A stretch of DNA of 64,000 bases from Nitrospirota bacterium (GTDB lineage Bacteria; Nitrospirota; Thermodesulfovibrionia; UBA6902): positions 647 through 64,646 of the forward strand of contig JACQZG010000009.1 in assembly GCA_016213935.1 (NCBI GenBank), in the 5' to 3' direction. The translations under genes and the position numbers were made by a program. The notes beneath the pieces were generated by a model that worked only from the letters and a program-made list of their open reading frames with translations, was not told where the DNA came from and did no database searches. Shown here one piece after another: positions 29,230 to 62,586 of this stretch. Positions within the stretch are counted from its first letter, which is position 1. Each line of letters starts with the position of its first letter.

Positions 29230-30741
29230 ATGTATAACTTTAACAGCCTCAAGTTCAAAATTTCCTTCGTTACTTTTCTCCTTATCTCCATAATAATGTC
29301 GGCAACCACATACAGGGATATCAAGTTGACAGAGCAAAAACTCATCAAAACGCAGCAGGAGAAGACTGTCCTCCTGTCTGACAGGATAGCTCACGGGATA
29401 ATGGTACTGATGCTGAAGAACAGGTGGCAGGAACTTCAGGCCATGATGCAGAATCTTGTAAAGGACAGCAATGAACTTAAGGAGATACGAATATTCCTTC
29501 CCACTGACGGGACAATAGTTGTATCCTCTGAAGAAAAAGAAATCGGGACAAAGATATACGCTGAGGATTTAATAAATTACAATAAAGGGAATTATGAGGA
29601 AGCTTTTTTGATAAATAAAGATGATTCCATTTATGCTTCAAAACTGACGCTTTTAAAAAACGCTCCTGCGTGTTTCAGGTGCCACGGGACAGAAAAGGAT
29701 GTGCTCGGAGTTATGGATGTCGAGCTCTCGCTTTTGAATGTGCATAACGCAATCGATGATTTCACCAAAGAGCATATCACGGATGCGTTTATCGGTTTTA
29801 TCATGTTAATGGGCACATTCCTCTTCTTGGTCGCGATCATGATTGACAGGCCTGTTAACAGGATGGTCAACACCATCAGAAGATTGGAGAAGGGGGATTT
29901 CTCAGCCAGAATGAACATCAGGTCTAAAGACGAGTTCGGGCTTCTCGCGGCCAGCTTTGACAATATGGTCGAGGCGCTTGAATCCGCAAAAAAAGAGCTT
30001 GAGCTTACCCATGAGATCAAGATGGAGAGGGCGGCAAAACTCGCAACTATCGGGGAGGTTGTTGCGGGCATTGCTCATGAGATAAAGAATCCTCTTACCG
30101 GAATAAGCTGCGCGGTGCAGCTTCTGCAGGTGGACATGAGCGAAGATGACAAGAACAGGGATGTCACTGAAAAGATACTGAGCCAGGTAAAGAGGCTTGA
30201 CAGGACAGTGAAAGACCTCCTTAGTTACGCCAAACCGAAGGCGGCAAAGTTTTTGCCTGCCAATATAGGCGAAGTTATTGACAGGGCAGTATTCCTTGTA
30301 TATCCGGAGGCAAAAAAACTTAACGTGAAAATCAATGCAACCGTTGCGCAAGACCTTCCTGATATCGTTATGGATACTGACCAGATGCAGCAGGTTGCGC
30401 TTAATTTGATGATAAACGCTCTGCAGGCTATGCCGGAGGGGGGCATACTGAATGTCAGCGTCTATCAGAAAAAATACAATGAAGTTCGCGATGAGTTGAA
30501 GTCCCCATTAAACTGTGAGAATGTTCTTGTTATGTCTTTTGAAGACACCGGCAAAGGGATCTCACAGGAGGACATGGAATATATTTTTGAGCCCTTTTTT
30601 ACCAGGAAATCAAAAGGGTCGGGGCTCGGGTTGTCCATAACGCAGAAGATCGTCCGTGAGCATGGCGGGGTGATTACATGCAGAAGCGCTCTTGGCAAAG
30701 GTTCTTTTTTTACGATATACTTGCCGATAACAAAGAAATAG
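29230..30741 (+). CDS. Sensor histidine kinase with periplasmic c-type-heme (CXXCH) sensor domain, HAMP, HisKA and HATPase
   Basis: TM1, ~150 aa periplasmic domain containing PACFRCHG, TM2, a HAMP domain, the H-box AHEIKNPLTGIS and the G-boxes GSGLGLSI. The sensor resembles Tll0287-like heme-c PAS-type sensor domains. Confidence 0.8.
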   Translation: MYNFNSLKFKISFVTFLLISIIMSATTYRDIKLTEQKLIKTQQEKTVLLSDRIAHGIMVLMLKNRWQELQAMMQNLVKDSNELKEIRIFLPTDGTIVVSSEEKEIGTKIYAEDLINYNKGNYEEAFLINKDDSIYASKLTLLKNAPACFRCHGTEKDVLGVMDVELSLLNVHNAIDDFTKEHITDAFIGFIMLMGTFLFLVAIMIDRPVNRMVNTIRRLEKGDFSARMNIRSKDEFGLLAASFDNMVEALESAKKELELTHEIKMERAAKLATIGEVVAGIAHEIKNPLTGISCAVQLLQVDMSEDDKNRDVTEKILSQVKRLDRTVKDLLSYAKPKAAKFLPANIGEVIDRAVFLVYPEAKKLNVKINATVAQDLPDIVMDTDQMQQVALNLMINALQAMPEGGILNVSVYQKKYNEVRDELKSPLNCENVLVMSFEDTGKGISQEDMEYIFEPFFTRKSKGSGLGLSITQKIVREHGGVITCRSALGKGSFFTIYLPITKK

Positions 30742-30744: not shown

Positions 30745-32145
30745 GTGGCTGGAGTGCAAAGCGTCAAGATACTTGTTGTTGATGACGAGGAACTCATCAG
30801 ATCCTCAATAAAACAGTACCTCGAAAAAGAGGGGCATGAAGTCCTGACCGAAGGAACGGGAGAGGACGGTCTTAAGACATACAGGGCCGAACTCCCGGAT
30901 ATGGTATTTCTCGACCTTCATATGCCCGGGATAAACGGGATGGAGGTTTTGGAGGCAATTAAAAAAATAAACAAAGATACCGTTGTCATAATAATCACGG
31001 CTCACGGCGCGGTTGAGACAGCGGTATCCGCCATAAAACTCGGAGCGTTTGATTTCATAGAAAAGCCTTTTGAGTTCAGCCGGTTGTCAATTTTAATAAA
31101 AAAGGCCCTTGAAACTGTTGACCTCAAGAAAGAGGTAAATTTTTTACGGGGCGAGCAGCATCAGAAGTACAGGTTTGAAAGCATTATCTGTGAGTCCGAA
31201 ATAATGAAGAATATTATTTCGCTTGCCAAAAAGATAGCGGAAAGCGACGCAAACACGGTTTTAATACAGGGAGAGAGCGGGACCGGCAAGACCCTCATAT
31301 CAAGGGCAATTCATTACCACAGCGCGAGGGCTTCTAAACCTTTTGTCGAGATAACATGCACCGCGTTGCCCGAGACGCTTGTCGAAAGCGAGCTTTTCGG
31401 GTATGAGAAGGGAGCATTCACTGACGCTAAATCGGCAAAGAAGGGGCTTTTTGAACTGGCTGACGGAGGGACAGTCTACCTTGATGAAATAGGCGATATG
31501 AAGCCTTCCACACAGGCCAAGTTCCTTAAAGTTATTGAAGAGAAGGTCTTTATGAGGATCGGCAGCCTGAAAGAGACATCTGTTGATGTCAGGATCATCG
31601 CAACGACAAACAGGAACCTGAGGGAAGAGGTTATGAAGGGCAATTTCAGGGAGGATTTATATTACAGGCTTAATGTAATACCCATGGAGTTTCCCGCCTT
31701 GAGGAACAGAAAGGAAGATATATTGCCTACGGCCATGTATTTTCTTGAAACGATGAGGAAAGAGTGCAGAAGAAATATTACCGGCATCTCCAAAGATGTT
31801 CAGGGCCTTTTTTTAAAATACAACTGGCCCGGCAATATCAGAGAGTTGAAGAATGTTATAGAGAGGGTTTTTATTCTCGGGATCGAAGGGCAGCTTCTAC
31901 CTGAGCATCTTCCCCTTGAAATTGCCGGGGTCGGCAGGGAGGCTCCGGTTTTGGGGTCAGTTCATGATCACGATGAATTCAGGTTCCCTATTTCGGATGA
32001 CGGCATATCCATTGAAGAAGTTGAAAAAGAATTCATTATTCAGGCCCTTCGCATGACCGCAGAGAATCAAACAAAAGCGGCTAAACTTCTCGGCCTTTCA
32101 AGGGATGCCCTCAGGTACAGGATGCAGAAGTTCAAACTTCTTTGA
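30745..32145 (+). CDS. Sigma-54-dependent response regulator (NtrC/AtoC family: REC, AAA+ sigma-54 activator, Fis HTH)
   Basis: REC (ILVVDDEELIR...D at FLDLHMPG), Walker A GESGTGKTL, the GAFTDA motif and a C-terminal HTH (AAKLLGLSRDALRYRMQKF). GTG start; it follows the kinase stop by 3 nt. Confidence 0.9.
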   Translation: MAGVQSVKILVVDDEELIRSSIKQYLEKEGHEVLTEGTGEDGLKTYRAELPDMVFLDLHMPGINGMEVLEAIKKINKDTVVIIITAHGAVETAVSAIKLGAFDFIEKPFEFSRLSILIKKALETVDLKKEVNFLRGEQHQKYRFESIICESEIMKNIISLAKKIAESDANTVLIQGESGTGKTLISRAIHYHSARASKPFVEITCTALPETLVESELFGYEKGAFTDAKSAKKGLFELADGGTVYLDEIGDMKPSTQAKFLKVIEEKVFMRIGSLKETSVDVRIIATTNRNLREEVMKGNFREDLYYRLNVIPMEFPALRNRKEDILPTAMYFLETMRKECRRNITGISKDVQGLFLKYNWPGNIRELKNVIERVFILGIEGQLLPEHLPLEIAGVGREAPVLGSVHDHDEFRFPISDDGISIEEVEKEFIIQALRMTAENQTKAAKLLGLSRDALRYRMQKFKLL

Positions 32146-32174: not shown

Positions 32175-34043
32175 TCACTGGGTTTTTTTTATGTAATTGC
32201 CTATCGCGGCTGCGACAACGTCCTTTCTCAGGGCTGTAAGGTTATGGTCATTAGGGTACAAGGCGAGGCCTTCATCAAGTACTGATTTCGACTTCTCATA
32301 ATAGATAAGGGAATTTTTTGGGTCGATTTCTCCAAGCCTGTAGTAAATCAATCCTTCGAGATTATACGAAGGAAGCCCCGGCCTCCTTATCTTCTCTTTC
32401 GCATTCCATAGCAGGAAACTATTTATAAAATCCATGTTCTCGGCAGGGTTTAAAGCGGCGTTAAGAGCTTTTCTGAACATATAATCAGGTTCAGCCCAGT
32501 TTTTCAAATAGATATTTTTTGTTGCCGGGAGAATTTGAGTTTCATCGAGGGCCTCCCCATTCATAAAGGCTTCTTTGTACTGTCCGTATTTCCTGTAATC
32601 GATAAATGTTTTTACGGTATAGGATGAGAGCCCCAGATAGAGCACTGAGAAGAATATAAGTATTGCCGCAGTCGCCTTGTTTCCGGTGCGAATTTCTTTT
32701 ACTCTCGTTTCATCGGATGTAACCATAAACAGCAGTATTATAAACAGGAGAAAGTGAGAGGCGGATAATTCCAGAGGGTATTCGACCATCGTATGCATGA
32801 GCACAGGGATAAGCAGCATAGCATATGCAAAAGTATTACTTACGCGGCCTGCTTTATACAGCATCTTGAAGATCCCAAACAGCGCGAAACCTAAGGCAAG
32901 CATTCCTGCTATCCCGCATTCGGCCAAAATATTAAAAAACTCATTATGAGGATGGCTTATGAATTCATTGTAAACCATTCCCTTGTACAGGGGATTTTCG
33001 GAGGAGACTTTTGCTTTTTTGTGCATAAAAACACTGCTGAAATTAGAGTATCCGTAGCCGAATAAGGGTTTATCCTTGAACATTTCATATGAGGTTTCGA
33101 AGAGAATCAGGCGTTCGACATAGGAACGCTGTGTTATGTCGGAAAGCCATTTGACTTTTTCCTTGGCGGTGCTGTCAGCGCTTTCAACCAGCCCTTTTGG
33201 GCCTGTCTTTGTGCCTGACACATAAAATCCGCAAGCTGTGCCGATAAAAAATATCATGATCCATATTGCTATATATTTTTTTGTCCGCAGATATGCAGAA
33301 TGGTTGGAAATCAAGAGCGCCAAAATGGCCAGCGCCAATCCTATAAGCCCAATCCTTGAATTGGCAAGGAACAGCCCTCCCGCAAGCGGCATAGCAGAGA
33401 TTAAAAATAGTGCCTTCTTTGCCTTTCCGAACAGTTTAAACCTTTCGGTTGTAATAAGGTGAACGCTTATCGCTATACCTGTAGCCGCCCATGAAGCAAA
33501 GAGGTTCTTCTGCTGGAAAGCGCCGCCGACATCAGGTATATATTTGGTCACTTTTACCATGGCAAGAGCGAAACTGATGCCAAAAGAATGTATAGCGTAG
33601 GAATTGACCAGAGCTTTCAATATGACCATGGTTGATTCAATAACTGCTGACATGAGTATCACTATAAGAACAGTTACTTTTTCTCTCTCACTGAATCTGA
33701 ACTGGTGAAGGCTTAACCATATTATTACTGCGGCAATCACGCGCAGGGATTGAATTATAAATATTTCCCTATTTAGGATTGGATTAAATACGGCTGTAAT
33801 CAGGAGGAGAGATGTGTAGGCTGCGGCATATTTAAAATACGACGGCACGATTAGTGCTTTTCTGCTTGTAACGAATGCAGCTGCAATAAGGATCAATGTG
33901 AAGATGCCTATCCAGACTATATATTCCCGAGGATGCGCAAGGGTGCCCCCCATATTCGGGATGGCAATATGCATAATAACGAGCAGGATAACGGATAACA
34001 CCGTAATCGGTAAATATTCAAACGCCTTTTGTGATTTTGTCAA
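32175..34043 (-). CDS. O-antigen ligase (Wzy_C) family polytopic membrane protein with C-terminal TPR-like soluble domain
   Basis: ~10 TM helices and HPHNEFFNILAE (conserved His of the WaaL/PglL type). The C-terminal ~200 aa are helical and repeat-like. It is a paralog of the upstream gene. Confidence 0.55.
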   Translation of the reverse strand: MTKSQKAFEYLPITVLSVILLVIMHIAIPNMGGTLAHPREYIVWIGIFTLILIAAAFVTSRKALIVPSYFKYAAAYTSLLLITAVFNPILNREIFIIQSLRVIAAVIIWLSLHQFRFSEREKVTVLIVILMSAVIESTMVILKALVNSYAIHSFGISFALAMVKVTKYIPDVGGAFQQKNLFASWAATGIAISVHLITTERFKLFGKAKKALFLISAMPLAGGLFLANSRIGLIGLALAILALLISNHSAYLRTKKYIAIWIMIFFIGTACGFYVSGTKTGPKGLVESADSTAKEKVKWLSDITQRSYVERLILFETSYEMFKDKPLFGYGYSNFSSVFMHKKAKVSSENPLYKGMVYNEFISHPHNEFFNILAECGIAGMLALGFALFGIFKMLYKAGRVSNTFAYAMLLIPVLMHTMVEYPLELSASHFLLFIILLFMVTSDETRVKEIRTGNKATAAILIFFSVLYLGLSSYTVKTFIDYRKYGQYKEAFMNGEALDETQILPATKNIYLKNWAEPDYMFRKALNAALNPAENMDFINSFLLWNAKEKIRRPGLPSYNLEGLIYYRLGEIDPKNSLIYYEKSKSVLDEGLALYPNDHNLTALRKDVVAAAIGNYIKKTQ

Positions 34044-34044: not shown

Positions 34045-35805
34045 TTATTTAATTTCCTTTGCGTCGGCAGATTTCATCTCTTGTTTTAACTTAACCATAC
34101 TGCTCCAGCCAGGGTAAAGATCCAGCCCTTCCTCAAGAAGTTTATATCCCTCTTCCCTTCTTCCTACGACAAACAAAGCAAATGACCCTCTTTCGTATAC
34201 ATGCGGATGCGGGAACACTTCTTTCTCCTTAATGAGAAAGTCAGCATAGTCTTCTATTAACTTCTTGTCGCCCCTCATAAAACCGATCCTGTAATTGGCA
34301 TCAAAATAAAATCTCTTTGCAAGCTGTTCAAGGTACATATTGCCGGTTGCTGGTTCAACAAGTTCAGGCCTGACAATTCCTATAATAAGCAAGTCCTGAT
34401 ATTTTTTCATGGCTCTCTGGGCAATGAGGGTTGTTATTGACAGATACGATATAATTACAAAGAGCGTGGCGGCCGCAGTAAACGCGCTTGCCCGTAAGAG
34501 TCCGGCTGGTCTAATCTTAATTTTCTTTACAAAAGATGACGACGGCAGGTAAAGCAGAAAGAGAAAGAGCGCCCAGTGGGGCATGGACTGATAAAGGGAA
34601 TAACTCACTTGTGTATCAAATGCTATCGGGAACAAAAAAGCCGCGTAAGTTCCGCCCTGTTTTCTTCCAAGTTTTATAAGGCATACCGTAAAGGCGGCTC
34701 CAATCAGCATCAGCCCGGCACTGCCCATTAGGCCGGACTCTACCGTCCTGTACAAAAACTCGTTATGCGGATGAGAGGTAAAGGCAGCTTCATAGGGATA
34801 TTCAGGGTGTTCTTTTGCAAGCCTGCTTCGGTAATGCATGAACCTGCTGCCGAAACTGCCGGGTCCGTGGCCGGTCAGCGGCCTGTCTTTTATCATGTTT
34901 ACAGCAGTAATGTACATCGGTACCCTCATGTCCGTAACCTCGTCTCCTGCTACACTCTCCATCGTCATCCCGATCTTTTGTCCTACGGAACTGAGCGCCG
35001 AGTCCCGTTTGTAGTAATACTTCTCAGCCGCCACACTGCCTGCTATTCCAAATACTATCATCAGCAACCATATGGCGAGATAGAGCGCCTTCTCTTTGTA
35101 ACTCCGATACCTTGCCCATAAGAGTATAAGTGTTCCGGCGCCGGCCTCTATAACTCCTGCCCGTGAGCCCGTCAGAAAAATGATAAAGCACATGAGCATA
35201 ACAAAAAGATAAAAAAGAGTTTTAAGCCATCTGCCGAATCCCTTAAAAATATCTCCGGTTAAGAGATAAAGCGATATCGCAATCGTGGTAGCAAGGTATG
35301 ATGCAAGTAGGTTCTGGTGCTGGAAATTGCCAAATATTTTGTTCGGGGCAGGCGCGACTATAAGAAATATGGCAGTATCAGGATTAAAATACTGAAACAG
35401 GCTTATCAGTGCCTCAGTCATGCCGGAGATAACTATCGCGTATAAAAGCCGTTCCTTCTCATCATTTGAAAACTCAAACTGATGGAGGGAAGCAAAAAAT
35501 ATTATCCCGCCGATAAGCCCGGCTGTCTCAAATATGAAGACATGACGGTCTATTATCGGATTAAAAATTGCTGACGAAAGCGATGATAAGAGGAATAGAA
35601 TTATATATAAGGAAATGCGCGGGACTGAGATGTCCCATTGATTGAATATATGTATCACTGAAAGAAGTACAAGTCCTGACAGCGTTATCCAGACAAGATA
35701 TGCCGCAGGCAGTACAAGGGGGGCGCCGAAGTTCCTGATGGTTATGTGAGAAACCGCCAGAAAGAGCAGCGCGAGAACCCATAAATGGATTTTCTTTGTC
35801 ATCAA
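34045..35805 (-). CDS. O-antigen ligase (Wzy_C) family polytopic membrane protein with C-terminal soluble domain
   Basis: LTGSRAGVIEAG and HPHNEFLYRTVESG motifs typical of O-antigen ligase/O-oligosaccharyltransferase proteins, plus ~10 TM helices. Confidence 0.6.
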   Translation of the reverse strand: MMTKKIHLWVLALLFLAVSHITIRNFGAPLVLPAAYLVWITLSGLVLLSVIHIFNQWDISVPRISLYIILFLLSSLSSAIFNPIIDRHVFIFETAGLIGGIIFFASLHQFEFSNDEKERLLYAIVISGMTEALISLFQYFNPDTAIFLIVAPAPNKIFGNFQHQNLLASYLATTIAISLYLLTGDIFKGFGRWLKTLFYLFVMLMCFIIFLTGSRAGVIEAGAGTLILLWARYRSYKEKALYLAIWLLMIVFGIAGSVAAEKYYYKRDSALSSVGQKIGMTMESVAGDEVTDMRVPMYITAVNMIKDRPLTGHGPGSFGSRFMHYRSRLAKEHPEYPYEAAFTSHPHNEFLYRTVESGLMGSAGLMLIGAAFTVCLIKLGRKQGGTYAAFLFPIAFDTQVSYSLYQSMPHWALFLFLLYLPSSSFVKKIKIRPAGLLRASAFTAAATLFVIISYLSITTLIAQRAMKKYQDLLIIGIVRPELVEPATGNMYLEQLAKRFYFDANYRIGFMRGDKKLIEDYADFLIKEKEVFPHPHVYERGSFALFVVGRREEGYKLLEEGLDLYPGWSSMVKLKQEMKSADAKEIK

Positions 35806-36140: not shown

Positions 36141-36156
36141 TGGTATGCTAATTGCT
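36141..36156 (+). promoter_or_regulatory. Candidate sigma-54 (-24/-12) promoter upstream of the first OmcS-like gene
   Basis: TGGTATGCTAATTGCT gives GG-N10-GC spacing with the TTGC -12 element, ~150 nt upstream of the ATG at 36304. The sigma-54 activator gene is 4 kb upstream. Confidence 0.5.
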
Positions 36157-36303
36157 TTATAAATAGCCGTGAGGATTAATCAAATGAAAGATAAACAAAA
36201 AATAAATACAGGAGGGTTGCCTATGGAACACAAAACCAAATCCATTTTAGATGGAGAATCAACACTATACTTTATTAAAAGTATAACACCAAAAGGAGGA
36301 ATT

Positions 36304-37299
36304 ATGAAAAAAGTACTGTTCACAATGTTCGTAGTACTTGCGGCCGCGTTCATGCTGTATGGAATCGCAGACGCAATCTCCGGCGTGTGCTCCGGATGCC
36401 ACACAATGCACAACAGTCAGGACGGCGCTGCAGTAAACGGTTCAGGCCCCGCAGACATCCTGCTCAAGAGCGACTGTATGGGCTGTCACACCACAGCGTC
36501 AGCAGTTGGACCGAGGGTTGATAATGCGACCTTGCTGTCAGCAGGCTCATTTGCAGATGCCTTTGTAACATCAGACACAAACACCCACAACGTTGAGGAC
36601 CTCGTAGGATTTAATGCCGGCGGCGCTGACGACATTCTTACCTCTAACGATCCACCGGGAGGAAGCGCGGCTGTTTTAACCAAGTTCTCTGGTGCTAACC
36701 AGTTGAAGTGCGCCGGTAGTAACGGCTGTCACGGTAGCCATGATAGTAAAGCTACAAGCTGGGCAGGCATACAGGGTTATCACCATGCAGGCGGGTCAAT
36801 CTATAAGTTCCTTGAGGTTGCTACTGACAACGAAGGCGCAGGCACCGCTGTTGCAGGCACAAAAGATTCAACCTACGAATCAGGCGGAGCAACCGCATCC
36901 AAACATAATATTTACGTGTCCGACGCGGCAACAGGCATCAGCGCATTCTGCAATAACTGCCATGATGTCTTCCACGGCGCGGCGACCACTGACCTGACCA
37001 CCAACGGCCTTTGGAACCGCCACCCGACCGATATATCAATTGCTACTTACCTTGGGGCTTCGGGTGTAACAGTTGATTATGTGAATAACCCGTTTGCATT
37101 CACAGCGGCATACGCAACCACATTAAGCACAACCTCGGCAACAGGTTATGACGCAACTAATGGTTATGTAATGTGTCTGTCTTGCCATCGCGCACACGCG
37201 TCTGAGTACGCAGACCTGCTCAGGTTTAACTATGCTTCACAGAGCGCAGGCGGCGGCGGTACAACAGGATGTCTCGGATGTCACGTGAATCAGAGGTAA
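36304..37299 (+). CDS. OmcS-like hexaheme c-type cytochrome (nanowire-type), paralog 1
   Basis: Strong RBS (AAAGGAGGAATT-ATG) and a signal peptide (MKKVLFTMFVVLAAAFMLYGIADA). The mature N-terminus [17 protein letters not shown] matches the OmcS CEGCHTMHNS start. C-terminal MCLSCHRAHASEYADLLRFNY matches OmcS NCLSCHRAHASGFDSMTRFN. Heme sites: CSGCH, CMGCH, C-x5-CH (CAGSNGCH), CNNCH, CLSCH, CLGCH. Confidence 0.75.
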   Translation: MKKVLFTMFVVLAAAFMLYGIADAISGVCSGCHTMHNSQDGAAVNGSGPADILLKSDCMGCHTTASAVGPRVDNATLLSAGSFADAFVTSDTNTHNVEDLVGFNAGGADDILTSNDPPGGSAAVLTKFSGANQLKCAGSNGCHGSHDSKATSWAGIQGYHHAGGSIYKFLEVATDNEGAGTAVAGTKDSTYESGGATASKHNIYVSDAATGISAFCNNCHDVFHGAATTDLTTNGLWNRHPTDISIATYLGASGVTVDYVNNPFAFTAAYATTLSTTSATGYDATNGYVMCLSCHRAHASEYADLLRFNYASQSAGGGGTTGCLGCHVNQR

Positions 37300-37308
37300 T
37301 TTAATCCG

Positions 37309-37373
37309 CAAGGGGAACCCGTTGGGGTTCCCCTTGCATCTGAGTGGTTAAGCAACTCTTAACCACTCAGATG
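37309..37373 (+). other. Two consecutive perfect stem-loops between OmcS-like paralogs (terminator/attenuator or RNA processing element)
   Basis: CAAGGGGAACC-cgt-GGTTCCCCTTG, immediately followed by CATCTGAGTGGTTAAG-caact-CTTAACCACTCAGATG (16 bp stem). No clear U-tract follows. Confidence 0.5.
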
Positions 37374-37397
37374 CAAGATACGAAAGCAAGGCATATT

Positions 37398-38609
37398 ATG
37401 ATTAAAATAATCATAAAAGAAATGGCAAGAATAAATAATACCAATAGGTATGTTTTAATATTTATTGCAGCCTTGGCTTTAGTTGCTTCTTCAGTAAATG
37501 CAAATATTACAGGCGTATGTTCAAACTGCCATACAATGCATAATAGTCAGGACGGAGCAGCTGTTGTTGGGTCAGGCCCAAACGATGTTCTTTTAACTTC
37601 AGATTGTCTTGGTTGTCACGGCCAGGGCGGCAGCCAGAAGATAATCAGTATCGGGGGAAGTGAGATTCCCCAAGTATTGCATTCTGACGGCACAGGCGAC
37701 CTTGCAGGAGGAAACTTTAATTATATCGGCACACTCGGCGACAATAGAGGCCATAACATCGTTGATCTCGTTAATGGAGATGATGTGTTAGATATACCGC
37801 CCGGGGCTGAATATGGCGAGCATGCCAATCCCGCAAAGATGGTCACTGATTCCGTGCTTACATGCGCAGGCTCTAACGGTTGCCACGGGTTTAGGGCGAT
37901 TGGAGGGAGTTCGAATCTTCAGGCATTAAAAGGGGCGCACCATAAGAATATTACAACTGATTCCACAAGCGGATTTGATGACGATTACAACAGCTATAGA
38001 TTTCTCAGGAAAGTGAAGGGGCATGAGAATGACGGGCAGGTAAATTCCTCAACAAAATGGCAGAATGCCGATGCCAATAACCATAATGAATATTTCGGCG
38101 CTACGTCTCCTCTTGAGTTTGACGCAAACTGCGCAAAGTGCCATTCAAATGCGCCGTCAGCCAACATTGTTCCCCCGCAAAATACTATGAGCGGCTTCTG
38201 CGGCACATGCCATATGAATTTTCATCTCTTAACAGGAACAGAAACCTCTGATATGGGCATAGGAGATTCAACTGTATCTCCATTCAGGAGGCACCCGACT
38301 GATGTTGTGTTGCCTGGGGCAGGTACAGAATATAATAACTATACATCGTACAGTGTGGAGGCTCCTGTAGCGAGGGGCGTGGTTCCTGACAGTATGAGCA
38401 ATGTCGTAACACCCGATAACAGCGGCGTACAGGGTGCGATTGTAATGTGCCTTTCCTGCCATAAGGCGCACGCATCTCAATATCCCGATATGCTGAGGTG
38501 GGATTATGACGGTATGGTTGTCGGCACAACCGGGGCTTCAGCCTTTTTTTCCATTGTCGATAGAAACCGCAGGTATTTATTGCATCTCAGCTTATTTATT
38601 GAAGAATAA
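37398..38609 (+). CDS. OmcS-like hexaheme c-type cytochrome, paralog 2
   Basis: Signal peptide ([27 protein letters not shown]). [26 protein letters not shown]-x5-CH (CAGSNGCH), [14 protein letters not shown] and [23 protein letters not shown]. The start is ambiguous (ATG at 37398 or 37422). Confidence 0.7.
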
Positions 38610-38647: not shown

Positions 38648-39628
38648 ATGCGTTCAATAAGACTTCAAACAAGAAAGATAATGACATTGATTAAACATGT
38701 TTTAAATCCATCTGTCATTATTGTTTTATTTGTTTTATTTGGAACAGTCAGACCTGTTTCATTAAATGCCCAGGGGCCTCTTGTCAGGTATTATATGGCA
38801 TTAGAGTATGACGAAAATGATGAGAGACTTGTCAGGCCCTCTTTTGCGCAGTATGAAAATGTAATGAATGAAATTTATGTAATTGATGCCAGGCAAAGGG
38901 TGCTGATATATACTTCTGACCTTTTTCCGGTTCTTTCACTCGGCAAGAGCCGTAAGATACTGAATCCCGAAGGTTTGACAGTTGATTCTAACGGCAATCT
39001 TTATGTTGTTCAGACAGCCACGCCTGAAGATTTGAGAAACAGGGTTTCCGTTTACAATGCCTGCCTCAAATGGGAGCGTGATATCTTTTTTGAGGGCTTT
39101 GAAGGCGCTGATAAATTTGTGCCGTATCGCCTTGCAAAAGATTCAAAGGGCAATCTTTTTGTTGCAGGAATACGCTTCCCGGGAGTTCTGATATTTGATG
39201 CTGATTATAACTTGGTAGAAATAATATCTCCGCAGGAAAATGATAGGAAGGCGTTGATTATGAATGTCCATATTGATGACACGGGCCGGATATATCTTGT
39301 AAGCGAGGAAGAAGGGCATATTTATGTTTATGATGAAAATCGAAAGTTCATCTATCAGTTTGGGGAAAAAGGCGGCAGTTCCGGCAAGTTGAGCAGGCCG
39401 CGTGCCGTGGCAGTTGATAATAACAGGGGATGGCTTTATGTCGTTGATTATATGAGACACACGGTCAATACATATGACCGCAACGGCATGATGTTATTCG
39501 AGTTTGGCGGAATGGGATGGGGAGAAGGCTGGTTCAGGTTCCCTACAGACATTAGCGTTAATAAGGAAGGCGATGTGATGGTTACAGACCTTTTTAACCA
39601 GAGAGTACAGATCTTTAAGCCTTACTGA
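38648..39628 (+). CDS. Secreted NHL-repeat beta-propeller protein
   Basis: Signal peptide and repeated NHL-like units (SNGNLYVVQ..., RPRAVAVDNNRGWLYVVDYMRHTVNTYDRNG, VMVTDLFNQRVQIFKP). Confidence 0.8.
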   Translation: MRSIRLQTRKIMTLIKHVLNPSVIIVLFVLFGTVRPVSLNAQGPLVRYYMALEYDENDERLVRPSFAQYENVMNEIYVIDARQRVLIYTSDLFPVLSLGKSRKILNPEGLTVDSNGNLYVVQTATPEDLRNRVSVYNACLKWERDIFFEGFEGADKFVPYRLAKDSKGNLFVAGIRFPGVLIFDADYNLVEIISPQENDRKALIMNVHIDDTGRIYLVSEEEGHIYVYDENRKFIYQFGEKGGSSGKLSRPRAVAVDNNRGWLYVVDYMRHTVNTYDRNGMMLFEFGGMGWGEGWFRFPTDISVNKEGDVMVTDLFNQRVQIFKPY

Positions 39629-39642: not shown

Positions 39643-41244
39643 ATGTCAATATTATTTTGCAATTTGAGGCGGTTTTTCAGAAATAAAAATTTGGTGTTGT
39701 GTATTATTATTTTTATATACGGCTGCTCCATCGTTTTAAATGATAATAGTGTAACTGAAGACCAGAAGCCTCCCGATTACAACAGCCAGATAACGCTTTA
39801 TTTTAATGGCCATGAGAAGACATCTCTTGATTTGGAATTTCTTTTAACCGGGGTTGACATGGTTTTTGTTGATGGAACATCAATAGGGATTCTTAAAGGG
39901 CCTGTAACATTGAGGTCATCTGAAGTTAAGGGCAGGCAGGTGCGCCTTGGCGAGATATATGTCCCTGAAGGCGAATGCAAAGAAGTCCGTTTGCATATCA
40001 CTAAAGCATCGATAATAACCCCTGACGGCACTGCATCACTTTCAATTTCTTCAGATACGGTATCCATGCCTTTTAATCTTGTCATTAAAAGGAGGCAAAA
40101 TTCCACGCTATTTTTAAATTGGAACCCTGACGGGTCTGTGACAGATAACTATCTTTTTACCCCTTTGTTCTATTTGGGAAAAGAGGCCCCAGACCTTATT
40201 GGTCAGCTTCTGTATGTTACCAATGAAGATTCTAATAATGTGTCGGTCATAAACCGGTATTACGGCAAGGTCGTCGGAACCGTGCTCGTAGGCAAAAGGC
40301 CGAGGGGTATTGCCGCTGGATTGAAGGAAGACCGGTTAAGGGTATATGTTGCAAATTCAGGTTCAAACAGCGTATCGGTAATTGATCCCAATACAAATAC
40401 AGTAGAACATGAAATCCCTTTAAGATTCGGTAGGGAACCGGTCGCGATTGCTGTTGCGAAAGGGCCTTTTGGGAGAGAACTCGTTTTCGTGGCTAATTAT
40501 GCTTCCGGCTCGGTATCTGTGATAGACCCTTTATCTTTTCAGGAGCTTGAGAGAGTCGGGGTCGGAAACGGGCCTGTGGCTGTAGCCGCGGATCCTCCCG
40601 TCGAATTTTATTCTGGTTCCGCATCTCTCAGCATTGAAGAGGTTAACTTAATAAAAGATTATAGAGGCAAATTTGTTAATGTCTATGTTGCCAATAAAGA
40701 GTCAAACAGCGTATCAGTAATTCGAATGGACATGCTTAATAACAGGGTGGAAGATGTTCAGAATGTCGCTGTTGAATGGAGCCCTGTCGCATTGTCCGTT
40801 GACTTCAAAAGAGGCAAAGTCTATGTCGCAAATTACGGCTCTGACAGGCTGTCTGTCATAGATATCGTATCGCTAATACGCGGGGATGGTTCTGCAGAAA
40901 TAAGCTCAATTGAAAATACCGGCCGTTACACAGTGGGAGTCGCAACCAATCCATTCATTGACAGGCTCTACCTGCTTAAATCCGTCTCGTCCGAAGTTTT
41001 ATTTTTAAACCCTTATTCTGATGCAGGAAATGATATATTTTCTGTATCAGGCTCTGTAATGGGTATTGCCGCAACAGGTCTTTCGCCGAGATCATTACAA
41101 TTTGACCTTCAATCCAGAAATCTCTTTGTGGTTAACAGCGGCTCCGACAGCGTTTCAATCATTGACGTCACTACCCGTAATGAAAAAAAGAGAATTTCCG
41201 TGGGGCGTAATCCTTACGGCGTAACAATGTTCTCGGTGAAATGA
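39643..41244 (+). CDS. YVTN-family beta-propeller repeat lipoprotein
   Basis: Lipobox (IFIYGC). Repeated ~40 aa units of the YVTN type (LYVTNEDSNNVSVINRYYGKV, VYVANSGSNSVSVIDPNTN, VFVANYASGSVSVIDPLSF, VYVANKESNSVSVI, LFVVNSGSDSVSIIDVTT). Confidence 0.75.
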   Translation: MSILFCNLRRFFRNKNLVLCIIIFIYGCSIVLNDNSVTEDQKPPDYNSQITLYFNGHEKTSLDLEFLLTGVDMVFVDGTSIGILKGPVTLRSSEVKGRQVRLGEIYVPEGECKEVRLHITKASIITPDGTASLSISSDTVSMPFNLVIKRRQNSTLFLNWNPDGSVTDNYLFTPLFYLGKEAPDLIGQLLYVTNEDSNNVSVINRYYGKVVGTVLVGKRPRGIAAGLKEDRLRVYVANSGSNSVSVIDPNTNTVEHEIPLRFGREPVAIAVAKGPFGRELVFVANYASGSVSVIDPLSFQELERVGVGNGPVAVAADPPVEFYSGSASLSIEEVNLIKDYRGKFVNVYVANKESNSVSVIRMDMLNNRVEDVQNVAVEWSPVALSVDFKRGKVYVANYGSDRLSVIDIVSLIRGDGSAEISSIENTGRYTVGVATNPFIDRLYLLKSVSSEVLFLNPYSDAGNDIFSVSGSVMGIAATGLSPRSLQFDLQSRNLFVVNSGSDSVSIIDVTTRNEKKRISVGRNPYGVTMFSVK

Positions 41245-41288: not shown

Positions 41289-43529
41289 GTGAGTAATAGA
41301 CGTTTAATAAACGCTCTTCTTTTTTTGATTTTATTTATCGGCGGTTCCTCGGCAGTCTTCGCTGACCTGAACGGAAACGCAAGCATTGACTATACCTCGT
41401 TTCAGGAGGATAGGGGCGATGCCAGTATTACCCAAAACGATACTCAGAAGCGTCTAAATTTCTATTTCACTAAACCGATAACCTCCCTTCTTTCTTACCA
41501 GCTAACTTTGAGGGCTGAGATTTCCGATTCTGATTCCAGTGATTCACAGGGCGCTGATTATACCTCTCTTAAGGAAGTCTATGAACCCGGAATAGATTTT
41601 TCGCTTAAAAATGTTATGTACGAATTCGATTCGGGGTTTCATCACAGAGATGAGCTTTATTCTAATTCAGGACAGGCTTATGATAACAAAAGAATCACTG
41701 ATTTTTTCTACAGCCGGTTTGCTGTCAGCCCTCTTAATCTCCCCACTTTTTCCGCTGAACTTAGCAGGATTAAGGAAAGCGATAACATCATGCTCGACAG
41801 GCAAAACAGTATTTATTTTTTGAGGTCATCTTATGAACTGCCTTCTCCCGAGCTTGACTTCAGGGCAAATCTCAATTATTCACATGCAGAAGAAGAGAAC
41901 CCCGGGAAAATATTGTATAAAAACGTCAGCGATGCTTACTCCGGTGATTATCAGTTATCTGATTCACGCATTTTTTTGTCTGGGAAAATAATACTAAATG
42001 GAAGTTACAGGGGCAATTTCAGCAGTGCCGACAGCACGAGTTATTCCTCAGATACCGGATATGTCCTCTTTGAGCGCACCAAACTCGGCGGCCTCCACGC
42101 AAAAGGAACGGCGCTGAATCCTGACGTTGACAGTTTGCCTTCTGAAACAGCTCTTGCTGATGATAATTATATTCTTTCGACATCAATTAATCTCAGCATA
42201 TCAGGTTCTGACGAATATCATAATATAGGGATTTGGGTGCCTTCTGACGATTCTGTCGAGAAACTGTACATTTACGTTAACAAAGATGTAACAGGCGATT
42301 TTTCTTTAAAAAGCATCTCGAACTGGAAAGTCTATAAGAGCGATTTTAACCTGGCAGGCACATGGCTTCCGGTAACGATCAGCAGTGTTTCGGTTTCTCT
42401 ATTTGATCTTGCAAACACCATTTATCGTTACGAAATCGAATTTTCAGCTCCGCATAATGCGAGATATTTCAAAGCGGTTAACATGGATGTCTCCGATATT
42501 TCCAATGTTGCTGTCACAGAGATAGAGGCTTACGGGTCAGAACTCATTCCTGATTCCGGAATATTGACGAGCTCTTCTAACGCACTCGGCCAGAGGCTGG
42601 ATTTTTTATCGGTCTTTCAGCCATTAAGCAAATTCAGATTTAGTTTTAATTATTCGATTGATAAGTCTGACCAGAATCCGTCATCTGTTTTTAGCTCGAT
42701 CACATCTCTTTTTACAAGCATTTTTTCCAAATCAAGGAGCGAAGAAGATCAATCTGATTCCAGCAGCACAATCAATAAAGGCCTCGCACTTAATGCAAAC
42801 TGGTTAACTCATAAATTTCTCACGACCAATTTTCGTTTTCAGCGGAATGAATCATATGACAATGCCTTTAAGACTGATAGGGCGGCTACTACTTATGAAC
42901 TATCTTTTAATTCATCGCCGATTGAAACGCTTAACGCAAGTTTTAGTATGGTAAGAGGGGATAGTTATCAATTTGAAGTAAAAGAGTCGACATATGATTC
43001 GGCAATATTAAGCCTTGGCACCCGATTATACAGGGATTTGAATATGGTGACGGATATAGGATATTCACGGTCTGACTCCGTAAGCGGGGGAGATTCAACT
43101 TCAAGGTATATTTCAGGTAGCATTGATTCGGTTTTTACAGATAAATTGGAGGGTAGCTTGAGCTACAATATAAACTGGAAATCGTCTGGGGAATCAGAAG
43201 TTCAGTCAAAAAGCAGTTCGGCAAAGATAACCTATCGTCCAGGCAGATTTGTTAATTTATCCTGTGATTTTAATTATTCTTCTAATGACGCAGGTTCCGC
43301 CATGTCGGAAATAATAACTGCGGAATGGCGGCCTGTCCCCGTTTTGCAGTTGAATGCCAATTACCAGCACTCAAGTACAAGCTCAGCGAGTATTACAAAG
43401 GATGTTTTTTCGGGCAACGGCACATGGCATATTAAAAAGTTTTTACATGCGCAGCTTTCATTTTTATATGAGAAAGAAGGCGAAAGCACGGAACAGAATG
43501 TCAGTACCGGCATGAGATTATTGTTTTAA
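41289..43529 (+). CDS. Large Ser/Asp-rich secreted protein, predicted outer-membrane beta-barrel (porin-like)
   Basis: Signal peptide (ALLFLILFIGGSSAVFA). 746 aa with alternating polar/aromatic beta-strand-like segments and a C-terminal ...TGMRLLF (terminal Phe, typical of OM beta-barrels). Confidence 0.5.
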   Translation: MSNRRLINALLFLILFIGGSSAVFADLNGNASIDYTSFQEDRGDASITQNDTQKRLNFYFTKPITSLLSYQLTLRAEISDSDSSDSQGADYTSLKEVYEPGIDFSLKNVMYEFDSGFHHRDELYSNSGQAYDNKRITDFFYSRFAVSPLNLPTFSAELSRIKESDNIMLDRQNSIYFLRSSYELPSPELDFRANLNYSHAEEENPGKILYKNVSDAYSGDYQLSDSRIFLSGKIILNGSYRGNFSSADSTSYSSDTGYVLFERTKLGGLHAKGTALNPDVDSLPSETALADDNYILSTSINLSISGSDEYHNIGIWVPSDDSVEKLYIYVNKDVTGDFSLKSISNWKVYKSDFNLAGTWLPVTISSVSVSLFDLANTIYRYEIEFSAPHNARYFKAVNMDVSDISNVAVTEIEAYGSELIPDSGILTSSSNALGQRLDFLSVFQPLSKFRFSFNYSIDKSDQNPSSVFSSITSLFTSIFSKSRSEEDQSDSSSTINKGLALNANWLTHKFLTTNFRFQRNESYDNAFKTDRAATTYELSFNSSPIETLNASFSMVRGDSYQFEVKESTYDSAILSLGTRLYRDLNMVTDIGYSRSDSVSGGDSTSRYISGSIDSVFTDKLEGSLSYNINWKSSGESEVQSKSSSAKITYRPGRFVNLSCDFNYSSNDAGSAMSEIITAEWRPVPVLQLNANYQHSSTSSASITKDVFSGNGTWHIKKFLHAQLSFLYEKEGESTEQNVSTGMRLLF

Positions 43530-43534: not shown

Positions 43535-44164
43535 ATGCGCAATAATGAAGCTTTAAATAAAAATATCAATGGGTTATATTATTCTATGTTTAATTCGGCA
43601 ATCAGGCATGGTTCATTGATTTTTCGTTTTTCGTTTTTATTATTTTTTGTAACATACGGGTGCAGCGTTATGAGCGCGTATGTAAGGCCCGGATTTGATA
43701 AAGCTTCAGTGAAAAAAATAGCGGTTCTTCCTTTTGAAAATTATACCGAAGATAAATTTGCAGGCCAGAAGATGAGGGCTAAGGTTATGATCGAGCTTCT
43801 TAATTCCGGATTCGAGGTTGTGGAAGAGGGGGAGGTTACAAGGATATTGAAGGAGTTAAAAGTGTATCAGGTCGCATCAATAACCGTTTCAGACATTCAG
43901 GAACTTGGCAAGAGGCTCGGCATTGACGCGGTGGTTAAAGGTTCAACAGGGGAGATGGAAGATAAGAAAGGCGTAGCCTTAACATATCCTGAAGTATCCA
44001 TTAATTTAAGCATACTCGATGCAAAATCCGGAGATATTGTCTGGTCCGTGTCGCATAGTGCCGGCGGTCCGAGTTTCTGGACAAGGCATTTTGGAACAGA
44101 GGGGGATACCCTGGATAAGGCCGCTTATAAAGTTGTAAAAGAGTCTATTAATACATTAAAATAA
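43535..44164 (+). CDS. Small lipoprotein, paralog family member 1 (hypothetical)
   Basis: Lipobox (FVTYGC). KIAVLPFENYT ... GIDAVVKGS; similar to the next two genes. An alternative start is the ATG at 43586. Confidence 0.5.
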   Translation: MRNNEALNKNINGLYYSMFNSAIRHGSLIFRFSFLLFFVTYGCSVMSAYVRPGFDKASVKKIAVLPFENYTEDKFAGQKMRAKVMIELLNSGFEVVEEGEVTRILKELKVYQVASITVSDIQELGKRLGIDAVVKGSTGEMEDKKGVALTYPEVSINLSILDAKSGDIVWSVSHSAGGPSFWTRHFGTEGDTLDKAAYKVVKESINTLK

Positions 44165-44182: not shown

Positions 44183-44779
44183 ATGAACTTAATATTGAAG
44201 TTGAAATATAATACAATTTTTATTTATCTAATAATTGGCTGTTCGTTTTTTTTAAACGGATGCTTCGCCTCTCAACCGACATATCATATTAAGGAGGATG
44301 TTGATTTCAGTTATATAAAAAGGGTAGCTATATTGCCGTTGCAGAATTTTACCAGCGACAAAAACGCTTCTGATGCGGTTAGGCAGGTGCTTATCACAGA
44401 ATTTTTGTCTTCAGGGTTGGCCGATGTTGTTGTCCCGGGAGACGTTCTGGCTGCCCTTAATAATATAGGCGTTAGCTCTATTTCCTCTCCAAGTATTGAA
44501 GAAATAAGATCAATCGGAAAATTTCTGAAAGTACAAGCTGTCATTACGGGTTCTGTAGACAAATTAGCTGAGATCAGGAGCAGTAATGTTACTTCGGCCG
44601 AGGTTACTTTGACTTTAATGATGGTGGACACAGGAGCAGGCGATATTCTCTGGTCCGTAACGGCCACAAGCGGCGGGGCAGGCTTTATGTCAAGGCATTT
44701 TGGCGCTGATACCCCGACATTGAGTGAAACGATTTCAGATGTTGTAAAAAGGTCTATTCAGACATTGACAGGGAATTAA
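44183..44779 (+). CDS. Small lipoprotein, paralog family member 2 (hypothetical)
   Basis: Lipobox (LNGC). RVAILPLQNFTSD ... VQAVITGSV ... ILWSVT ... HFGADTPTL parallels member 1. Confidence 0.5.
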   Translation: MNLILKLKYNTIFIYLIIGCSFFLNGCFASQPTYHIKEDVDFSYIKRVAILPLQNFTSDKNASDAVRQVLITEFLSSGLADVVVPGDVLAALNNIGVSSISSPSIEEIRSIGKFLKVQAVITGSVDKLAEIRSSNVTSAEVTLTLMMVDTGAGDILWSVTATSGGAGFMSRHFGADTPTLSETISDVVKRSIQTLTGN

Positions 44780-44819: not shown

Positions 44820-45896
44820 ATGATGCCTAAATCAGACAGACTGACTTCTTTTTTTTCTTTAGTTAAATTTTCTTTACTGTTGCATAGTTTTTTGTTTTTC
44901 TTTTTGTTGTGCGACGGTATTGTCTTTGCCCAAGCAGTCACTGATATTAAGGAAGCCGATCAGAAAATAATCATATTTCCTTTTGATAATTATAGCGATA
45001 AGGTAGAAGCCGCTGACATTGTCATGCCTGTTCTCGTGGATAGTTTTATAAATAGAGGGTATAAAGTCATTGATGAAAAATTGCTTTATGACTTTTTATG
45101 TAAAGAGAAAGTAAGGGAAACAGGGTATATCTCAAGGGATCTTGCGAGAAAATTAAGAGATAAATTCGGGGTTGATTTTATTCTGGTTGGAGCGATTATC
45201 AGATTTGCTAATATTGACGTTCCTGATTTGGGTTTGACGGCAAGGCTTGTTGATGCTTCAAACGGCAACATCTTATGGGCTGATTATTCCTCAGCTGCTG
45301 GAGATGACTTTACAGCCGTATTAGGATTGGGGAATGTAAGGGAGATTGAAATGCTCGTTTCCATGGTGATCAATAATCTTTTGGCGTCATTCAGCTTAGA
45401 ACCTTTTGGCAAGCATGCCGAATCAGCTTACAAGATAGCGGTAATGCCTTTTCAGAATGATTCTGAAAATAAGGATGCCGGAATGATAGCCTCACAGTTT
45501 TTTATAGTTTCTTTGTTTAAAAGCAAAAGCTTTATCCCTGTTGAATACGGTGAAATTAAAACAAATATTTTTGATCTAAAGTTAAGGACAAAAGGTGAGC
45601 TGGATTATAGAAGTGTCAGCGAGTTAATGGAAAGGCTGAATGTTGATGGTTTTGTTATAGGCACAGTTGAACTATATTCCGAAGGGCAGAGGCTGCTTTC
45701 TCCCCCTGCGGCCGCAGTAACCGCAAGACTTCTGAATGCGCGTAACAGCAGGATGCTATGGTATAACAGGTACCAAATGACCGGTGATGATGATGTTATA
45801 ATTTATGATTGGCGCAGACTCAGGAGCGTTGATAAGGTTGCAAACAGGATAATTTCAAAACTTGTTAATGGGATGGGAGCTATTCAATGGCAGTAG
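44820..45896 (+). CDS. Secreted protein with two tandem copies of the same lipoprotein-family domain
   Basis: KIIIFPFDNYSD...ILWADYS and KIAVMPFQNDSEN...MLWYNRY are two repeats of the module seen in the two preceding genes. Confidence 0.5.
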   Translation: MMPKSDRLTSFFSLVKFSLLLHSFLFFFLLCDGIVFAQAVTDIKEADQKIIIFPFDNYSDKVEAADIVMPVLVDSFINRGYKVIDEKLLYDFLCKEKVRETGYISRDLARKLRDKFGVDFILVGAIIRFANIDVPDLGLTARLVDASNGNILWADYSSAAGDDFTAVLGLGNVREIEMLVSMVINNLLASFSLEPFGKHAESAYKIAVMPFQNDSENKDAGMIASQFFIVSLFKSKSFIPVEYGEIKTNIFDLKLRTKGELDYRSVSELMERLNVDGFVIGTVELYSEGQRLLSPPAAAVTARLLNARNSRMLWYNRYQMTGDDDVIIYDWRRLRSVDKVANRIISKLVNGMGAIQWQ

Positions 45897-47521: not shown

Positions 47522-47537
47522 GTCAACAGCTTATCGT

Positions 47538-50906: not shown

Positions 50907-51926
50907 ATGAAGTTACCGCTCTATAACATAATTTTTTTTTGCGGTTTGATGTTTGTTCTTTATTTGTCCGAGTGCAGCGCTGATATGTCGGGTAAATTCT
51001 GCAGCGATTGTCATACAATGCATAACAGCCAAGCTTCTGAGGTTATGACATTTGATGACAGTTTGACGCCTTACAAGGCATTGCTACGTGGCTCTTGCGA
51101 CGGCTGTCACTCATCTTCCTCTAATTCCGTGTGGATTGACTCGGTTGCCGGGGCCCCTATCGTATATAATACTGTTGAACCTTCATATGCGAACAATGGA
51201 CTTGCCGGCGGCAATTTTTATTACACAAGTACAACCGATGATGATAAAGGCCATAATATTTTTTTGTTAAATCCTGATGATATATTAGGCAATACTCCGC
51301 CTGGAGGGAATAGTCTCGATCAGCAACTCAATTGTTCAGGAACTTACGGTTGTCACGGGCATAACGGCAGGCAGGTCGGAGATGTCGCAATTGAGGATCA
51401 ATTGAGTGCGATTATGGGCGGGCATCACGGGATTAATTCCCCTATGGACGGCAGTGTCACTGAGGTATCAAAAAGTTATCGTTATCTGCTTGGCATAAAG
51501 GGTATGGAGGATTCTGATTGGGAACATGACAATACTGCCACAAGCCATAATGATTCAAGCTCAACCGATTCTATAAGTTTTTTTTGCGCTTAATGCCATG
51601 GTAATTTCCATACATGGACAGGGGGCGAGTCTGAAGTGGGAAGCGCTTCTCCCTGGCTTAGGCATCCGACCGATATGGTTTTGCCGGCTTCCGGGGAATA
51701 CAATTCATATACAAACTATGACCTTTTGGCGCCAGTCGCTCGGGCAGATCCCGATTCTGTTGCCGACACTACGCGTGCTTATCCTGGAACCGACATTGTT
51801 ATGTGTCTTTCATGTCATCGGGCGCACGCCTCTCCTTATTACAAAATGCTCAGGTGGGATTATAAAAGCACAGTTTTATCAACTGCATTATCCGGATGCA
51901 ATGTTTGTCATACGTCAAAAAATTAA
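50907..51926 (+). pseudogene. OmcS-like hexaheme cytochrome paralog 3, interrupted by an in-frame TAA (51591-51593) inside a CXXCH motif
   Basis: Signal peptide, [17 protein letters not shown] and C-x5-CH (CSGTYGCH). At the fourth site the paralogs read CxxCH but this copy reads FFCA-TAA-CHGNFH. The same frame then continues (WLRHPTDMVLP ... CLSCHRAHASPYYKMLRWDY ... CNVCH) to 51926. Confidence 0.6.
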
Positions 51927-55068: not shown

Positions 55069-55084
55069 TATAGGGGGTGGAAAT

Positions 55085-56161: not shown

Positions 56162-56186
56162 ATTATAAATCTTACATGGAGGTAAC

Positions 56187-62582: not shown

Positions 62583-62586
62583 AGAC

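Follow-up and report, generated by a model that had tools for sequence, protein, structure and literature searches.

Do the tandem cytochrome genes at positions 36304 to 38609 of this DNA encode filament-forming "nanowire" proteins like OmcS of Geobacter, as an earlier note on the sequence had proposed? We addressed this question in the whole 64-kb stretch (here called the window), which comes from a metagenome-assembled, uncultured Nitrospirae groundwater bacterium. The two genes are designated A and B, and a third paralogue found in the window is designated C. The reference protein was OmcS of Geobacter sulfurreducens (GSU2504; PDB 6EF8 and 6NEF). Sequence comparison places A and B firmly within the OmcS superfamily, in a sister family to the OmcS clade proper. 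Both this placement and a part in extracellular electron transfer, as members of an OmcS-type cluster, appear nearly certain, and the formation of filaments by A is, judged from its sequence, an even bet. The explanation that we favor overall, with moderate confidence, is that they are OmcS-superfamily cytochromes at an omcS-type gene block, with A as the one most likely to polymerize.

The relationship to OmcS was first apparent from single sequences. When A alone was searched with phmmer against all PDB sequences, OmcS was the sole match (E = 1.5e-9), and B gave a weak match to the same protein (E = 1.8e-3). Against the proteins of the Geobacter locus, A matched OmcS with an E value of 2.7e-17, a GSU2501-like protein with 3e-11, and OmcT with 8e-11. 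Two alignments served for the comparison of families, A1 with 53 family members and A2 with 26 OmcS-clade proteins. The A1 profile matched OmcS among the PDB sequences with an E value of 3.7e-25 in one stretch (profile positions 30 to 326, OmcS residues 8 to 349). A comparison of A1 with A2 by hhalign gave a probability of 99.94% and an E value of 1.1e-36 over 295 aligned columns, with 26% identity. The homology spanned heme motifs 1 to 5, including the CHTMH and CLSCHRAH blocks, and the predicted fold of A was OmcS-like. Homology to OmcS, as claimed in the earlier note, was thus borne out by sequence, profile, predicted fold, and gene neighborhood (see below). The OmcS strings that the note had given also proved correct, since in PDB chain 6ef8_A the peptide ECEGCHTMHNS aligns at residues 8 to 18 and NCLSCHRAHASGFDSMTRFN at residues 327 to 346.

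The similarity could in principle be that of multiheme proteins in general (NapC/NrfH, cytochrome c3 or c7, or MtrC type), with no specific kinship to OmcS. A and B gave weak matches to the NapC/NirT, NrfH, DmsE, and Cytochrome_C7 models of Pfam and NCBIfam, and the next PDB matches of the A1 profile were to NrfA, with an E value of about 2e-4 in the C-terminal third. However, all of these model matches lay below the curated cutoffs, and the one such model to exceed its cutoff was the generic Paired_CXXCH_1 (PF09699; 34.8 bits for A and 38.7 bits for B; cutoff, 20.6). This model and TIGR01905 (26.6 bits for A and 34.2 bits for B; cutoff, 25.2) represent a generic motif domain that is uninformative on function. 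OmcS was the only strong PDB match, it was matched over the whole length, and the neighboring genes were likewise homologous to those of the omcS locus. The profile, fold, synteny, and profile-profile results refute the generic reading, to which we give next to no credence.

The gene neighborhood was examined by retrieving the Geobacter omcS locus via the OmcS cluster representative. There, a sensor kinase gene and a sigma-54 response regulator gene are followed by a 315-amino-acid (aa) gene, omcS, omcT, a 1017-aa gene, a GSU2501-like cytochrome gene, a YncE propeller gene, a 718-aa gene without a Pfam match, and a GNA1162/LpoB lipoprotein gene. The corresponding genes of the window are listed in Table 1. 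The NHL propeller matched the product of the Geobacter 315-aa gene (E = 3e-14), the YncE propeller matched its Geobacter counterpart (E = 9e-33, 27% identity over 483 aa), the 746-aa barrel matched the product of the 718-aa gene (E = 2e-15 over 676 residues), and the lipoproteins of the window matched the Geobacter GNA1162/LpoB protein (E = 1e-13 to 1e-16). The retrieved locus reached to the third gene of the Geobacter block, and the genes compared directly were those for the NHL and YncE propellers, the barrel, and the first lipoprotein; from the peptidyl-prolyl isomerase (PPIase) and 26-heme cytochrome genes onward, the correspondence is taken from the description in PMC12977616 and from related loci. 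On this sequence evidence, the window block is orthologous to the G. sulfurreducens omcS locus, with A and B at its head.

Table 1. Features of the cytochrome cluster in the window
Feature	Positions	Strand	Remarks
HAMP/HisKA/HATPase sensor histidine kinase	29230-30741	+	Pfam; putative cluster regulator
Sigma-54-dependent response regulator (receiver, Sigma54_activat, HTH_8)	30745-32145	+	Pfam, E = 1.3e-67
Two tandem Wzy_C/PglL-type O-antigen-ligase-like membrane proteins	32175-34043, 34045-35805	-	Pfam Wzy_C, Wzy_C_2, PglL_A; divergent from A
Sigma-54-type promoter-like element TGGTATGCTAATTGCT	36141-36156	+	Fits -24/-12 consensus; 148 nucleotides before start of A
Gene A	36304-37299	+	Predicted secreted OmcS-family hexaheme cytochrome, 331 aa; ATG at 36304
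Two adjacent perfect hairpins between A and B	37309-37336, 37337-37373	+	Stems of 10-11 bp and 17-18 bp
Gene B	37344-38609 (open reading frame); 37422-38609 (coding)	+	OmcS-family paralogue, 395 aa; likely ATG at 37422
NHL-repeat beta-propeller with signal peptide	38648-39628	+	Pfam NHL
YVTN/YncE-type beta-propeller lipoprotein	39643-41244	+	Lipobox IYGC; TIGR02276, E = 1.4e-50
746-aa outer-membrane beta-barrel	41289-43529	+	About 28 strands, C-terminal Phe; model and homology to Geobacter 718-aa gene
Three GNA1162/LpoB-like lipoproteins	43535-44164, 44183-44779, 44820-45896	+	Pfam
SurA/PpiC-type PPIase lipoprotein	45887-47521	+	Pfam Rotamase_2, E = 4.7e-28
26-heme c-type cytochrome	47478-49490	+	CxxCH count
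16-heme c-type cytochrome	49441-50778	+	CxxCH count
Paralogue C	50907-51926	+	OmcS-family gene with in-frame TAA

In Geobacter, the GSU2500-2493 block is tied to the maturation and secretion of OmcS nanowires, according to Shen et al. 2025 as cited in PMC12977616. The same source describes GSU2495, inside this block, as a protein of about 70 kDa with 26 hemes and states that a block of this type never occurs without an OmcS-like gene of the GSU2501 type; it proposes GSU2501 as ancestral. A large barrel and propeller lipoproteins have also been described as hallmarks of the OmcE and OmcS nanowire regions (bioRxiv 10.1101/2025.10.22.684050). The window resembles the Geobacter arrangement in having an OmcS-like gene before the YncE propeller, large barrel, lipoprotein, PPIase, and 26-heme cytochrome genes; from the YncE gene to the 16-heme cytochrome gene there are exactly eight genes, as there are in GSU2500-GSU2493. 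The two loci differ in that the NHL gene lies between the cytochrome and YncE genes in the window but upstream of omcS in Geobacter, and in that the window cluster has no spermine-synthase-like gene. Among 80 related loci, many of them incomplete, we found the NHL gene in 40, the lipoprotein genes in 37, the YncE gene in 24, the PPIase gene in 22, and the barrel gene in 17. The order cytochrome, NHL, YncE, barrel, first, second, and third lipoprotein, PPIase was strictly kept where loci were long enough, and 12 loci of Nitrospirota, Desulfovibrionaceae, and Desulfonauticus shared it.

The model of the 746-aa barrel had a predicted local distance difference test (pLDDT) score of 87.8, with an inserted beta-sandwich at about residues 257 to 420 and one helix at residues 467 to 479. 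It matched large outer-membrane barrels including MtrB, and its sequence had no match in Pfam, NCBIfam, or the PDB. Paired_CXXCH_1 occurred 13 times among the 26- and 16-heme cytochromes, and the 444-aa cytochrome had no sequence relatives in the PDB. Another multiheme cytochrome gene, with seven CxxCH motifs and one longer-spaced site, lies beyond C. The glycosylation genes upstream also differ, being of the PglL/Wzy type in the window and of the PMT_2, GT2, and methyltransferase types in the Geobacter omcS locus. No Wzy/PglL genes were found next to relatives in any of the 80 loci; we therefore set them aside as part of the system, their association being uncertain.

We next considered the proteins themselves. 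The product of A is identical (100%) to the NCBI protein HY809_02680, and its gene has a Shine-Dalgarno sequence, AGGAGG, at positions 36294 to 36299, four bases before the ATG. Its signal peptide ends in ...GIADA, the mature protein contains MCLSCHRAHASEYADLLRFNY, and the second His of CHTMH is H36 in precursor numbering. Five CxxCH motifs and one CX5CH motif at site 3 make up its predicted heme sites, all of which align with OmcS sites. B has a signal peptide ending in ...SSVNA and belongs to a heptaheme subfamily with an extra CAKCH motif. The Sec-type signal peptides and their AxA-like cleavage sites were read directly from the sequences; export past the periplasm is suggested by the adjacent barrel and propeller genes. 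A six-frame motif scan of the window found the CHTMHNSQ and CLSCH(R/K)AH blocks in A, B, and one third gene, C. The three are mutually only 32 to 38% identical and therefore represent old paralogue types rather than recent duplicates. The coordinates and the quoted peptides of the earlier note were exact. The two proteins do not, however, end with the strings quoted there: A goes on beyond the CLSCHRAH block into ASQSAGGGGTTGCLGCHVNQR, which contains heme motif 6, and B goes on into a nonhomologous tail. The third paralogue of which the note spoke lies outside the interval that it gave.

A shares with OmcS a CxxCHTMHNS motif only a few residues after the signal peptide, the order of its six predicted heme sites, the GHN(V/I), YR(F/I)L, RHP, and C(L)SCHRAH(A/G)S...R(F/W) blocks, a tandem paralogue directly downstream (compare omcS-omcT), the set of accessory genes and their order, and the presence upstream of genes for a sensor kinase and a sigma-54 regulator. 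It differs from OmcS in sequence (about 26 to 28% identity), in length (331 aa versus 434 aa), in its third site (CX5CH versus CSSCH), and in the absence of the N-terminal FHSGG that holds His2 of OmcS. The A family has conserved His residues in HH (160/161) and HNxY (201) that OmcS lacks. The host of A, unlike that of OmcS, belongs to the phylum Nitrospirota.

The family is large: there were 581 matches in a database clustered at 90%, B had 910 representatives at the 50% identity level, and the species genomes of GTDB contained at least 543 loci. Its members come from Nitrospirota/Thermodesulfovibrionia and from Thermodesulfobacteriota (Desulfobulbia, Desulfobacterales, and Desulfovibrionaceae), and also from metagenome-assembled genomes (MAGs) labeled Aquificota, Campylobacterota, and Spirochaetota; they are abundant in MAGs of Desulfobulbia, Desulfobacterales, Thermodesulfobacteria, and Desulfovibrionaceae. 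CxxCHTMH was present in 110 of 120 homologues, and the second His of CHTMH was invariant in both A1 and A2. The invariant columns of A1, in the precursor numbering of A, were the Cys and His residues of five heme motifs together with H36, Q39, H95, H160, H161, H240, and H298; H201, H224, and the sixth heme motif were nearly invariant. In the alignment, H36, H95, H224, H240, and H298 are equivalent to His16, His110, His247, His257, and His335 of OmcS, respectively. H160, H161, and H201 have no counterpart in OmcS, and His2, His63, and His147 of OmcS have none in this family. A has eight conserved nonmotif His residues for six hemes, a count that does not settle whether ligation in A is in cis or in trans.

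The third heme site, CX5CH (CAGSNGCH), lies at positions 36709 to 36732 in A and 37866 to 37889 in B. By a heuristic count, the C-x5-CH spacing was found in 98 of 127 family open reading frames (ORFs), the remainder having spacings of 2, 3, 4, or 6; the term CX5CH was not found in the literature searched. The linker from the R(F/W)xY block to the last heme motif is about 10 residues long in the family and about 75 in OmcS. Related loci (L001, L005, L016, L018, L026, and others) often hold two to six tandem OmcS-family genes of differing paralogue types. Other Nitrospirota loci, among them L001, L005, and L016, repeat the succession of an A-type and a B-type gene, and in several Nitrospirota MAGs this pair directly precedes the NHL gene. 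B is a distinct conserved paralogue type, often found behind an A-type gene.

Does A polymerize? In OmcS, the donor of the intersubunit ligand is reportedly His16, paired with His332 (an assignment said to be that of Wang et al. in 2019). The numbering of chain 6ef8 places the His of CHTMH at residue 16 and that of CLSCH at residue 332, and both are invariant in the family. Eleven of the axial ligands in OmcS come from its own subunit and one, on the fifth heme (heme 505), comes from the neighbor (Filman 2019, PMC6584659; see also PMC9473688). OmcS filaments have also been produced in Shewanella oneidensis (bioRxiv 10.1101/2023.10.26.564108). Because the equivalents of His16 and His332 are invariant, head-to-tail polymerization like that of OmcS is the most economical reading. 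Under this reading, A would be the main product of the locus, with its strong ribosome-binding site, its putative sigma-54-type promoter, and the two stable hairpins that follow its stop codon. It would mature in the periplasm with six bis-His hemes and, with the aid of the propeller lipoproteins and the PPIase, either traverse the 746-aa barrel or be mounted on it. It would then polymerize head to tail, His36 ligating heme 5 (of the CLSCH motif) in the next subunit, and would carry electrons between envelope multiheme cytochromes and external minerals or partner cells.

Several points weigh against polymerization of this kind. The intersubunit ligation by His36 is taken over from OmcS by homology. 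The AlphaFold model of A was of moderate confidence, with a pLDDT of 66.9 and values of about 50 over residues 21 to 70, CHTMH included, and a Foldseek search gave no match. OmcT and the GSU2501-like paralogue carry the same CHTMH and are not known as filament formers (PMC12977616). The short linker, the CX5CH third site, and the different set of extra conserved His residues mean that the subunit interface could differ from that of OmcS. The physiological role of the OmcS filaments is itself disputed (PMC11077965). The earlier note had argued from the conservation of CHTMH to filaments; this argument is weak, since the motif is superfamily-wide and does not discriminate filament formers.

A and B could instead be nonpolymerizing hexaheme cytochromes at the outer surface or facing the periplasm, like OmcT, OmcJ, or GSU2501. 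They would then work as monomers, either carrying electrons or acting as terminal reductases, while bound to the barrel and the large cytochromes as in a porin-cytochrome conduit, and the His of CHTMH would be intramolecular or have another role. We regard this as a real possibility, at about one chance in three. Of four G. sulfurreducens paralogues, only OmcS is known as a wire, and the prediction of nanowires from homology to OmcS is error-prone (PMC12977616). CHTMH is common to all of the paralogues, the matches of A to OmcS, OmcT, and the GSU2501-like protein are of about equal strength, and the C-terminal linker is far shorter than that of OmcS. A also adjoins the secretion block, the position held by GSU2501 in Geobacter. 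MtrB, to which the barrel is similar, serves as the porin in a porin-cytochrome complex. However, the donor His and the heme-5 motif are the two most conserved blocks in both clades, the accessory block is the one tied to nanowire maturation in Geobacter, and PMC12977616 considers it possible that GSU2501 "forms an uncharacterized nanowire."

Polymerization of A might also take a structurally distinct, compact form. In such an OmcS-type nanowire, the mature subunit would have about 300 residues, an expanded CX5CH loop at the third heme, and a very short linker between hemes 5 and 6. The A and B types would divide the work (one might supply the major subunit, for instance, and the other a base, cap, or terminator), the filament would perhaps be O-glycosylated by the two adjacent PglL-like ligases, and the sigma-54 two-component pair would switch it on. 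We consider this combination of features improbable.

How many of the three paralogues are functional? The earlier note had stressed that CHTMH is conserved in all three. The motif is indeed present in A, B, and C, but the C-terminal heme motif is missing from B, and C is interrupted by a stop codon. CxxCH is absent from every frame of B beyond CLSCHKAH; a search for a frameshift that might recover heme motif 6 found that none of the three frames after position 38480 encodes it. A C-terminal CxxCH was found in 133 of 134 family ORFs of related loci, the sole exception being cut by a contig end, and in 133 of 135 representative homologues. The nearest relatives of B end in ...GTTGASAGTGCFTCHTTKDG or, with variants, ...GTTG(A/P)(S/A)AGTGCF(A/T)CHT(E/T)KDG, and B departs from them just past GTTGASA, where seven T occur in a row at positions 38543 to 38549. 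The 3' end of B is thus probably defective or misassembled. In C, a TAA at positions 51591 to 51593 falls within heme motif 4 (FFCA*CHGNFH). Since the family consensus is CAECH, the stop codon corresponds to a single GAA-to-TAA (G-to-T) change, and C is either a pseudogene or the product of a base-call error.

These defects raise the possibility that only A is functional and that B and C are decaying pseudogene copies, in which case there would not be three working nanowire paralogues. We consider this slightly more probable than its converse. Besides the lost heme motif of B, its abrupt divergence at the T run, and the stop codon in C at a position where the family has Glu, the fast evolution and turnover of multiheme cytochrome genes in general (PMC12977616) fits decay. 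On the other hand, the source is a MAG, and a homopolymer indel or chimeric join at 38543 to 38549 or a single-base error at 51591 could have produced the same picture. No single frameshift restores CxxCH in B, so that any error there would have to be more complex. Elsewhere, B and C are well conserved and have kept every other motif.

The signals for expression were examined around A. The motif TGGYAYN5TTGCW had only two matches in the 64 kb when both strands were searched, versus 0.39 expected by chance. One is the element upstream of A, a putative sigma-54-type promoter judged by its consensus; the other, at positions 53622 to 53637, lies just before the next cytochrome operon. Both precede plus-strand operons. 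Upstream of Geobacter omcS, no sigma-54-type match was found at up to 1 mismatch. The hairpin region between A and B had a predicted fold of -56.8 kcal/mol (z = -8.3), and none of 200 shuffled sequences was equally stable. In Geobacter, a GC-rich hairpin is present after omcS, but the fold of that region was insignificant (z = -1.1); we draw no parallel between the two loci for either the hairpins or the promoter. A dispersed repeat of the REP (repetitive extragenic palindromic) type was rejected as an origin of the hairpins, each arm occurring only there in the window. An intrinsic terminator was likewise rejected, since the consensus scan did not call one in the absence of a T tract. The pair is possibly a transcript-stabilizing or attenuating structure. 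Together with the strong ribosome-binding site, it points to A as the abundant product, with B as a read-through partner.

The earlier note held that such loci are poorly characterized outside Geobacter, which is only partly true. OmcS homologues have been surveyed across bacteria (PMC10954620). The Oet (OetABI) cassette of the syntrophic sulfate-reducing partners of anaerobic methanotrophic (ANME) archaea has OmcS-like cytochromes beside a barrel and large cytochromes, with proposed filaments (PMC10553843). Cytochromes of the DFE_450/464 type are known from Desulfovibrio ferrophilus (PMC5815863), and OmcS and DFE genes were reported in Thermodesulfovibrionia MAGs from the DeMMO site (PMC8478452), from which the related locus L005 also comes. 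The Oet and DFE systems resemble the window locus, which is from Nitrospirota, in having multicopy OmcS homologues in non-Geobacter anaerobes, located beside an outer-membrane barrel and large multiheme cytochromes and proposed to form filaments; their cytochromes are likened to the window family here by description. Because OmcS homologues and proposed filaments outside Geobacter have already been published, the window locus overturns nothing. What may be new is the CX5CH third site, the compact C terminus, the recurrent pairing of A and B types, and the context of sigma-54 and PglL genes, none of which is tied to function.

If A does polymerize, structurally verified OmcS-type nanowires would be extended to Nitrospirota (Thermodesulfovibrionia-like groundwater bacteria). 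Its subunit, about 100 residues below OmcS in size, would then be a minimal one and would show which parts of the fold are needed for polymerization and conduction. The strict order of genes across phyla, from cytochrome through NHL, YncE, barrel, and three lipoproteins to PPIase, supports the published idea of an ancient and widespread assembly machinery for OmcS ("widespread and ancient" in Shen et al. 2025, as cited). The cytochrome-to-PPIase order is also a practical rule for choosing candidate nanowire loci in metagenomes.

Two other groups of genes were observed in the window. A second electron-transfer module at positions 53660 to 63420 comprises a response regulator gene, two pairs of genes for a multiheme cytochrome and a cytochrome b561-type membrane protein (54166-57077 and 61530-63420), an NHL propeller gene (58085-59005), and an 18-heme cytochrome gene (59040-61289). 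At positions 1366 to 5069 there is a cyclic-nucleotide trio, made up of a CHASE2-adenylate/guanylate cyclase gene (1366-3447), a gene on the minus strand for a metallo-beta-lactamase protein resembling class II cyclic AMP phosphodiesterases (3485-4252), and a gene for a Crp-family regulator (4374-5069).

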